This document shows, in pieces, positions 1 to 2,440 of a DNA stretch of 64,000 nucleotides (position 1 is its first letter; every line of letters begins with the position of its first letter). The translations under genes were made by a program, and so were the position numbers. The notes beneath the pieces are model-generated. The model searched no databases, was not told the DNA's origin, and was given only the letters and a program-made list of their open reading frames with translations. The stretch is from Octopus sinensis (Eukaryota), in contig NC_043014.1 in NCBI RefSeq assembly GCF_006345805.1, positions 18,352,001 to 18,416,000 of the forward strand, given 5' to 3'.

Positions 1-50
1 GTATATTTTACCCCAGTGTCACTTTGATGGCATGCACTGCCCTCTCACTC

Positions 51-92
<42 letters not shown>
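1..92 (+). mobile_element. 3' tail of an (AAT)n-terminated non-LTR element (same tail as 19570-20100)
   Basis: TTTACCCCAG..CACTTTGATG..ATGCACTG..CTCTCACTC(AAT)n matches 20040-20100. Confidence 0.6.
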
Positions 93-94
<2 letters not shown>

Positions 95-124
95 CATCGA
101 AAAATACCTTTGAAATTTCCATAA

Positions 125-170
125 GACGCCTGATGAACACTGGAGGGTATATCAGCCGAAACGTTGTGTT
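125..170 (+). ncRNA. Minimal type-I hammerhead ribozyme, stem II partly decayed
   Basis: GACGC-CUGAUGA-A-[cactg..cagcc]-GAAA-CG-UU-GUGUU; stem I 125-129/166-170; paralogue of 753-798. Confidence 0.7.
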
Positions 171-249
171 AACAATAAACAAGATGAAGACAAATATCCG
201 TCAAATGTAAATAATGTAAATAAGCTACACAAAAGTAATTGAAAATCTC

Positions 250-326: not shown

Positions 327-624
327 TCTAGTCGCCCCCTCAAAATAAGGGTAGGGGAACATCGTAAAGCTGTGACACGAGGAGATATTGATAAATCGGG
401 TATAATTGATCATGTGTGGGACCTCGGAGACCACAGTGGGATGAAGTTAAAATAATAGACAGGGAATACCACTGGAAAATACGAAAACTAAAAGAAGCAG
501 CACATATACTAGGACATAATAACCGCCTAAGAAGACCTAGTGCAGATATGAGTAGCATATGGGAACCGGTATTAAGGAAGGATAGAAAAATATTAGATTT
601 ATAAGCTCTAAAATTTATTCTCTA

Positions 625-680
625 TGGTGTAGTGGTTAAGAGCGCGGGCTTCTAACACCAAGATTCAAGGCAGTGGCCTG
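625..680 (+). promoter_or_regulatory. tRNA-like segment (Pol III A box) inside the PLE terminal repeat
   Basis: TGGTGTAGTGGTTAAGAGCGCGGGCT is a tRNA 5' half with A box; adjacent B box absent here, B-box-like GGTTTGAAATT at about 735-745. Confidence 0.55.
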
Positions 681-752
681 AATAATAATAATAATAATAA
701 TAACTTCGAAATATACCTAAGGAATGAGAACCCAGGTTTGAAATTTCCCCAG

Positions 753-798
753 GACACCTGAAGAAGGCTGGAGAATATATCAGCCGAAACGTTGTGTT
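753..798 (+). ncRNA. Minimal type-I hammerhead ribozyme (PLE-associated)
   Basis: Stem I GACAC/GUGUU, core CUGAAGA (758-764), extra A, stem II GGCUG/CAGCC with 10-nt loop, GAAA, palindromic AACGUU, predicted cleavage after GUU (793). Confidence 0.8.
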
Positions 799-999
799 AA
801 CAACAAACAAGATGAGGACAAATATCCGTCAAATGTAAATAACGTAAATAATGTATTTATTCGAGACTGTTAATTACCAGTTTTTTTCTCCCATGTCTTT
901 ATAAACTCTACATAAACAGAGGAGTAATTTCAGTAAAAACAATATCAGGAACCAGCAGCAAAGCGAGTGCGAAACAGGAGAAATTTTCAGAATAAGAAA

Positions 1000-1182
1000 T
1001 TCCATCTGACAAGTATTTCGGCCCTTACTCGTTGTACTCTAAAAGCTCCAAGGTCATGACTCCTAGTTGTCCTCCTACCGCTTTCCAAAATCCTGTCTTC
1101 ACTGGGATTCGAACCTGGGTCATTCTTTTTGTGATCTTGTGTTCCCAGGTTTGTGTTTCAGACCGCTAGGCCATGGTGACCA
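1000..1182 (-). mobile_element. tRNA-headed SINE-like element
   Basis: Minus strand: A box TGGCCTAGCGG ... B box GGTTCGAATCC. Confidence 0.55.
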
Positions 1183-1379
1183 CGGAATCCATAGATCGTT
1201 TCTCTTTGTCCATATCCACATTCAGCAGGATTTACAGCTAGACTGTTGTGAACACCAGGTAAATAAATATTGTAAACAGTGTTTAAACAAGTTGTATATC
1301 CAAATACAAAATTGTTATACATCTAATATATAAAATAGAGATGCGTGCTTATTCACTTTTCATATATATATATATATAT

Positions 1380-1929: not shown

Positions 1930-2440
1930 TTAGTCTCTGGTCCTTTTCCAGAGGTTGGGGGCCATACTGGAGCACCGCCTCTCAGTGTTTTAGGGGTCTC
2001 TTTTTGGTACAGTTCTTGGTGAAGATGCGAGTTGGACGAAGCTGTTCCTCTTTGTGCCCCGTGTCGCGATGTGGGCTCATATAAGATTTCAGATAAAAAT
2101 TTGTCCAGGTGCATTTTGATCGTCTCCACATCTACACCTCTTAGGTTCTTTGCCAGGATGTTAAACAGTTGTGGTCCCCCGAAAGCGAGATTGTTGGAAT
2201 GCTGGGCCCTTATCTTCAATGAAGAAGTCCATATCTTTGGTATAATGCAGCGCCGTCCATTTCGGTGATTGGTATAGCTTTTAATTCCATAGTTTGGAGC
2301 TAGACCTTCTAGGATCTTCCATATGCATATCACTGCATACCTTTCTTGCCTTCTCTCGAAGGAGCAGAGCTTCATTCCTTGTAGCCTCTCTCAGTAAATC
2401 ATGTTTCATCGAGTCAGCCTTCTTCTACATGCATATACCT
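1930..2440 (-). mobile_element. CR1/L2-type LINE 3' fragment (decayed ORF2 C-terminus)
   Basis: [41 protein letters not shown] matches the LYSLERRRER..WKIL..LFN.LP..LDKFL pattern. Confidence 0.8.

Follow-up and report, generated by a model that had tools for sequence, protein, structure and literature searches.

A tRNA-derived head in the terminal repeat of a coding Penelope-type retroelement of octopus is a candidate RNA polymerase III promoter

Several described systems share parts of the arrangement reported here. The closest is PAc, a Penelope/Poseidon element of Anolis carolinensis (PMC11167929), which has one ORF with an RT and, C-terminally, a GIY-YIG domain, pseudo-LTRs, and a hammerhead ribozyme that overlaps the start of the ORF. 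As described there, the ribozyme cuts at +26, the RT starts 111–118 nt into the ORF, there are two internal RT start zones, a 30–40-nt tail lies about 90 nt past the cut site, and the RT mainly uses unprocessed RNA. The octopus family resembles PAc in its ORF, pseudo-LTRs, hammerhead position, RT start zones and tail, and probably in its use of uncleaved RNA as template. It differs in that its in-frame ATG precedes the whole ribozyme and in that its repeat carries a tRNA-derived module, whereas the published passages on PAc describe neither such a module nor a Pol III promoter. The octopus ribozyme is itself like the minimal hammerheads of metazoan PLE repeats (PMC4209133) in its short stem I, its unpaired base 5' of stem II, its lack of a real stem III and its occurrence mostly as single dispersed motifs or opposite-strand pairs; the word "tRNA" is absent from the main text of that paper.

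A Pol III promoter followed by a hammerhead is found in the schistosome elements SM-alpha and Sj-alpha (reviewed in PMC6765202). These are non-coding, often tandem, and have their monomer freed by cleavage, whereas in the octopus an autonomous element has the module as its repeat, and copies cross the cut site. Small-RNA-derived Pol III promoters within terminal repeats are likewise described for Cassandra, Helenus and Ajax (TRIMp3; PMC10886601), which are non-autonomous LTR elements; the author expects Pol II in their autonomous partners. Non-LTR retrozymes, like the short octopus copies, are short hammerhead sequences from PLE repeats, defined in the text of the preprint by tandem arrays and with no tRNA head reported there (bioRxiv 10.64898/2026.07.22.740005); the octopus copies, in contrast, are dispersed and are not a separate lineage. 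Minimal hammerheads in PLE repeats and Pol III promoters in non-coding mobile elements (SINEs, TRIMp3, schistosome ribozyme repeats) are thus known already. In the literature searched, no tRNA-derived promoter is described for an autonomous PLE, and a look-up of the sequence itself gave no hit; supplementary repeat libraries, Repbase/Dfam or Ohshima & Okada 1994 may hold the sequence. The octopus repeats OR1 and OR2 are cited as CORE-SINEs (PMC4824008, PMC4758252), and the accessible text of PMC13282606, PMC6962438, PMC8967140 and PMC7761336 does not describe the present sequence.

The window analysed here is a stretch of 64,000 nucleotides from Octopus sinensis. An insertion at 253–852 shows the PLE arrangement of an inverted piece (253–332) and a main copy (333–852). 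The inverted piece comes from the 3' part of the repeat, lies on the minus strand and matches the final 73 nt of the family unit at 85%; it carries the tail and lies head-to-head with the main copy, as such partners do in 53 of 88 sampled copies. Judged from its sequence, the main copy is a 5'-truncated member of a high-copy RT + GIY-YIG family of Penelope/Poseidon type, and all of its parts lie on the plus strand. ORF frames and genome matches define 333–604 as a C-terminal fragment of the ORF, 5'-truncated and frameshifted, which spans two frames (327–455 and 410–604) and ends with the stop at 602–604; matches of 87–89% occur genome-wide, and longer genomic copies link the fragment to the RT. 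Alignment with six other copies reveals two deletions: the spacer at 605–622 lacks 16 nt just before the A box, which hold the likely transcription start, and the tRNA-derived head (623–680, A box at 625–635) lacks 12 nt near 663–666, which are the B box. The (AAT)n microsatellite that follows (681–703) varies in length between copies and often receives insertions of other retrotransposons. Beyond it, 724–745 holds a second T-loop-like motif (735–745) and an ATG (724–726); in other copies this ATG starts the ORF frame ahead of the ribozyme. In the window copy a C-to-T change in this part creates a stop. A minimal type-I hammerhead motif (753–798, from core pattern and fold), with a predicted cut after U793, precedes the 3' part of the terminal repeat (799–852), which ends about 59 nt past the cut site, without the tail. 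With its true B box and likely start site deleted, the window copy is predicted to be promoter-dead.

An earlier note on this DNA had listed the stop of the GIY-YIG frame, an A-box-like stretch from 625, the (AAT)n tract and the hammerhead, all of which are present; the stop codon is TAA. Other readings in it change once further copies are aligned. The B box that it placed near 735 is the T-loop-like motif, with its central C mutated; in the six aligned copies the true B box lies about 45 nt past the A box, which is the spacing of a tRNA. What it took for a tRNA 5' half is in the family a full tRNA-length module, and its AT-rich tail corresponds in full-length copies to coding sequence for the ORF N-terminus.

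A search of the 2.72-Gb genome gave 3285 candidates for the repeat and 2780 for the ORF fragment. A consensus of the family, assembled from 98 fragments, gives a unit of 2652 nt; its single open frame spans 783 codons or more and has an RVT_1 match (E 3e-8) and 375 homologs. The GIY-YIG domain was identified by motif and homology; Pfam missed it in one copy (L037) and gave E 0.23 in a homolog (P0005). Read by eye, the translated consensus contains the DKG motif and the CCHH endonuclease motif and lacks the extra Zn-finger linker that marks Neptune/Nematis. By the clade criteria of PMC8557442, and on these motifs, the family is of Penelope/Poseidon type. It has the further properties of an EN+ PLE: a single ORF with the RT followed by the GIY-YIG endonuclease, a partial-tandem pseudo-LTR, an inverted 5'-truncated partner and a 30–40-nt tail at one end. 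Among 26 loci picked by the start of the ORF, many have the repeat directly upstream; this upstream repeat includes the head at four (L165, L170, L174, L181), two of which also carry the end of the previous unit's ORF. Real copies (L167, L170) can be read in frame from an ATG 5' of the hammerhead into the ORF, the distance between the ribozyme and the body of the ORF preserves the frame in 9 of 10 scorable copies, and two distant homologs among the 120 listed (P0005, P0039) encode a similar peptide in the same frame through hammerhead-like sequence. Exact 25-mers of the hammerhead, the head and the ORF end occur 3686, 1910 and 645 times in the genome. Because 9 of 67 copies hold the exact hammerhead word, the 3686 exact counts would correspond, as a rough estimate, to some 27,000 hammerhead-bearing segments.

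The terminal repeat regularly includes the tRNA-like head, as had been proposed: of 26 independent ORF-bearing, GIY-YIG-anchored copies (three duplicates and the window copy left out), 23 carry it after the ORF stop, and in long copies the repeats at both ends have it. Its exact 25-mer places it at 1910 or more sites in the genome. The consensus head aligns over the tRNA length to host tRNA genes, best to tRNA-Arg(TCT) with a score of 51.5, above all 500 shuffles (best shuffled score 30 ± 3, maximum 45); the comparison sampled 46 host loci of few isotypes, and the donor tRNA is therefore not fixed. Single copies gave no tRNA call with Rfam (window and two good copies) or ARAGORN (29 loci), so the tRNA origin of the head rests on the alignment of the consensus to host tRNAs. 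Both boxes are kept in the family consensus, where the acceptor stem is poorly paired, and the strict B-box core is found in 40 of 67 short copies. A tRNA-related 5' head with A and B boxes, as in SINEs, is thus present at the family level and is not intact in the window copy. In the consensus, the ORF stop lies within a TATA-like stretch about 30 nt upstream of the likely start, a position where tRNA genes often have one; this may be chance in AT-rich DNA.

The hammerhead of the window copy has its core at 758–764 with one extra A at 765, stem I at 753–757/794–798, stem II at 766–770/781–785, GAAA at 786–789 and a GUU ending at 793, and a palindromic ACGU replaces stem III. The motif therefore has the core, stems I and II, palindromic stem III and NUH triplet of a minimal type-I hammerhead. 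The window contains its core pattern twice, where 0.04 occurrences would be expected. The MFE fold of the monomer forms stems I and II, but its z of only -1.57 is unremarkable, and Rfam gave no hammerhead call in the window or in two good copies. A subfamily variant has A at the free position N7 (10 of 69). Since stem III is palindromic, cleavage is predicted to need a dimer or the help of a protein.

Copy boundaries were mapped in one sample anchored on the hammerhead (91 segments, first 90 loci) and one anchored on the head (88 segments, 90 loci), both taken in chromosome order, all on one contig (C1), and biased to copies with the exact word. The hammerhead census contained a pile of 5' ends at the (AAT)n tract (about 27 of 91), which was rejected as a true end: one LINE family interrupts at least six of these repeats, and other insertions interrupt more of them. 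The head-anchored census was made for this reason. In it, 67 of 88 5' ends fall at -16 to +18, counted from a G that precedes the A box by 13 nt; 43 fall at -4 to +11, and 17 copies reach into the ORF side. The rate of stopping is 0.040 per base in the -16 to +18 interval versus 0.002–0.003 in the flanks, or about 15 times the background. In the independent hammerhead-anchored sample, 21 of 91 5' ends lie in the same 26-nt zone and 8 beyond it. Most of the ends that lie further upstream than about -5 represent fold-backs at a short hairpin or palindrome at the start of the head, where several copies fold back; exact fold-backs are seen at L365, L378, L390, L357, L402 and L097:5661–5690. The palindrome could serve as a primer of second-strand synthesis.

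The 3' ends could be mapped in 76 of the 88 head-anchored copies; the other 12 have no body match nearby, and most of these end in long (AAT)n. All but three of the mapped ends lie 32–92 nt past the hammerhead cut site, in two zones at about 50–70 and 86–92 nt, and the remaining three are at or before it (-28, -6, -1). Because 73 of 76 copies pass the cut site, the mobilised RNA appears to be uncleaved, and not the product of about 170 nt with a self-cleaved end that the earlier note had envisaged. Cleaved RNA may occasionally be copied, with 2 of 76 copies ending within 6 nt of the cut site. L367 and L397, both ORF-bearing, stop 1 and 6 nt short of the predicted cut and possibly come from cleaved RNA. 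The same note's proposal that Penelope, rather than a LINE, mobilises the repeat agrees with the frequent inverted partner and with the tail, which is on exactly one partner in 30 of 33 scorable inverted pairs, on both in none and on neither in three (Fisher p 2e-6); an inverted partner and a one-sided tail are marks of PLEs (PMC8557442). Target-site duplications showed no regular pattern, with flanking repeats of 8 nt or longer in only 2 of 11 solo copies and in neither of them adjoining the 5' end. The LINE-type 3' end and target-site duplications of a SINE are therefore not seen; the 3' ends are PLE priming sites, and with the one-sided tail they match the PAc pattern.

Our preferred reading, to which we assign a probability of about 0.65, is that Pol III starts at the head of an upstream repeat, that short copies are run-off cDNAs, and that longer or circular templates give rise to long copies. 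Because most sampled head-containing copies begin right at the head, the head likely acts as a Pol III promoter, as judged from where copies end. Pol III would start about 13 nt before the A box and read through the hammerhead into the ORF. The element's RT would then prime internally, just inside the start of the ORF as in PAc, and on uncleaved RNA would run about 250–280 nt to the 5' end, leaving many short, SINE-looking copies; priming on a downstream repeat, a multimer or a circle would leave long ones. The hammerhead, with its predicted dependence on a dimer or protein, would not define the mobilised unit, and the window copy, which lacks its B box and start site, would be a long copy that is now dead. 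The RT appears to cross the larger part of the tRNA-like domain with no more stops than in the background and to halt at the domain's 5' edge, a pattern that fits a template end better than a structural block. The hairpin at the start of the head could itself stop the RT, and a Pol II start at the same place would equally give a pile-up of 5' ends. Assembled contigs from eight sequencing runs contain matches to head, hammerhead and ORF across five organisms together; some bridge the ORF end and the head, and summed depth is higher for the head than for the ORF end, although contigs show no RNA ends, strand or level and are uninformative about expression.

More tentatively, and at somewhat worse than even odds, the whole 2.65-kb coding retrotransposon may be a Pol III unit. 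A captured tRNA promoter would drive a terminator-free RNA through the ORF; the start codon, lying 5' of the cut, would remain linked to the ORF only where the RNA is uncleaved or circularised; the hammerhead would switch between template and message; and protein would be made without a cap. The sense strand of the 2652-nt consensus contains no run of four or more T, and 131 genomic segments of the family contain 0.34 such runs per kb. The ORF would be expected to hold 2.6 runs under its own codon usage (P 0.04) to 4.9 under four-fold-site frequencies (P 0.003), and Markov nulls of order 0, 1 and 2 give P 0.007, 0.08 and 0.24. Runs of four G are likewise missing from the unit. As a control, a Neptune-type PLE of the same genome, which has no A or B box in its repeat, contains 35 T runs in a 4.5-kb unit, with 5 in its ORF core versus 4.95 expected. 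One R4/Dong-like consensus ORF has 3 versus 3.4–3.9 expected; pooled R4/Dong-like copies are poor in T runs (2 versus 8.5–10 expected), and so are some single LINE ORFs (P 0.03–0.13). The absence of T runs is compatible with Pol III transcription of the whole element and is statistically weak; given the Markov nulls and the T-run-poor LINE ORFs, we rejected it as proof of Pol III.

Against these Pol III readings, a transcript of Pol III lacks a cap and is difficult to translate. Kojima also considers the processivity of Pol III too low for autonomous elements (PMC10886601). A division of labour between two promoters, which we regard as rather unlikely, would solve the translation problem: Pol III at the head would make short template RNAs ending in or soon after the start of the ORF, and Pol II would supply the mRNA and the long copies. 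The excess of short over ORF-bearing copies, about 3 to 1 or more, is in keeping with this arrangement, whereas the lack of a Pol III terminator (T4 or longer) in the whole unit speaks against it, as does the lack of any internal cluster of 3' ends save three junctions at 458–464. This cluster lies near a GT donor-like site; splicing there was considered and rejected, as the acceptors differ and share no common AG. The two-promoter scheme overlaps our preferred reading and differs from it only in the source of the mRNA.

With still lower probability, the head has no promoter role and is the relic of a captured tRNA or SINE. Transcription would then be by Pol II, from the repeat or by read-through, and the stops would reflect the hairpin, or processing (an RNase P-type cut) or modification of the tRNA fold. 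The fold-back copies at the palindromic hairpin would suit such a relic, as would the six 5' ends at +6 and four at +7, around tRNA position 1, and the failure of single copies to score as tRNA. Known PLE promoters, moreover, are associated with spliced introns that they overlap in other PLE repeats (PMC8557442). However, the 5' ends spread from about -4 to +18, many of them upstream of tRNA position 1 and beyond the 3' edge of the hairpin. The poorly paired acceptor stem and the retention of both boxes in the consensus also speak against a relic, and no case of GT-AG intron loss was seen among 27 internal-deletion junctions.

An independent, self-propagating SINE or retrozyme, with a ribozyme-bounded RNA and a borrowed Penelope RT, is largely refuted and in our estimate very improbable, although short copies do start at the head with boxes intact and the schistosome Pol III/hammerhead SINE-like elements (PMC6765202) offer a precedent. 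Nearly all copies run well past the cut site, and short and long copies differ neither in diagnostic variants nor in age. Non-CpG divergence in the body is 0.057 for short (n=56) and 0.064 for long (n=33) copies, and polymorphisms are common to both at like frequency; the single site that differed significantly lies inside the anchor pattern and was set aside as a selection artefact. The 56 short and 33 long copies sampled thus give no sign of a separate SINE lineage, and the non-autonomous lineage apart from a coding element that defines a SINE was not found. With the repeat belonging to an element with its own long frame, the separate SINE/ribozyme chimera suggested earlier is not supported. 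Tandem monomers delimited by ribozyme cleavage, as in retrozymes and SM-alpha-type elements, were not found either: head-to-tail arrays are rare, an upstream direct repeat being flagged in 2 of 91 segments, one of them a microsatellite only. The RNA for PAc insertion, furthermore, needs about 55 nt beyond the RT start (PMC11167929), which solo copies lack. A chance SINE insertion confined to the window copy, finally, has nothing in its favour and is ruled out by the head's presence in ORF-bearing copies and across the genome.

If the preferred reading is true, a Pol III promoter in the repeat of an autonomous, RT-encoding element would mean that ribozyme-bearing retroelements can dispense with Pol II and a cap, and would let SINE-like and retrozyme-like derivatives arise directly from a Penelope element. 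The base-precise predicted start of the RNA would make a clean system for the in vivo role of the Penelope hammerhead. In practice, the short copies in this genome, some tens of thousands in number, could be wrongly annotated as SINEs.

The Neptune-type PLEs of this genome (L268–L282, e.g. L268:591–5900) form a younger family with open frames of 560–1009 aa, a 780-nt repeat, a T-rich leader and a minimal hammerhead-like motif with U for C3; this second family does carry the extra cysteines. Within the window, 75–223 (plus strand, by pattern and family matches) forms the body of another, separate solo terminal repeat; the hammerhead of this repeat is degenerate, and its head lies 4.3 kb upstream of the window, separated by a LINE insertion. 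Window positions 1–92 and L097:5871–10000 are the 3' end of this LINE, an R4/Dong-like element of about 4.2 kb (a family name taken from reading the protein, not from a tool label), which sits in the (AAT)n tract of the solo repeat and thus downstream of a tRNA head. The same LINE, close copies of which are about 97% identical, splits at least 6 of the 91 sampled repeats, and further (AAT)n-targeting elements split others. By eye, other tRNA-like or SINE-like repeats lie nearby at about 1080–1200 (minus strand) and about 1380–1760, and 1977–2390 (minus strand) is a LINE-like ORF fragment.
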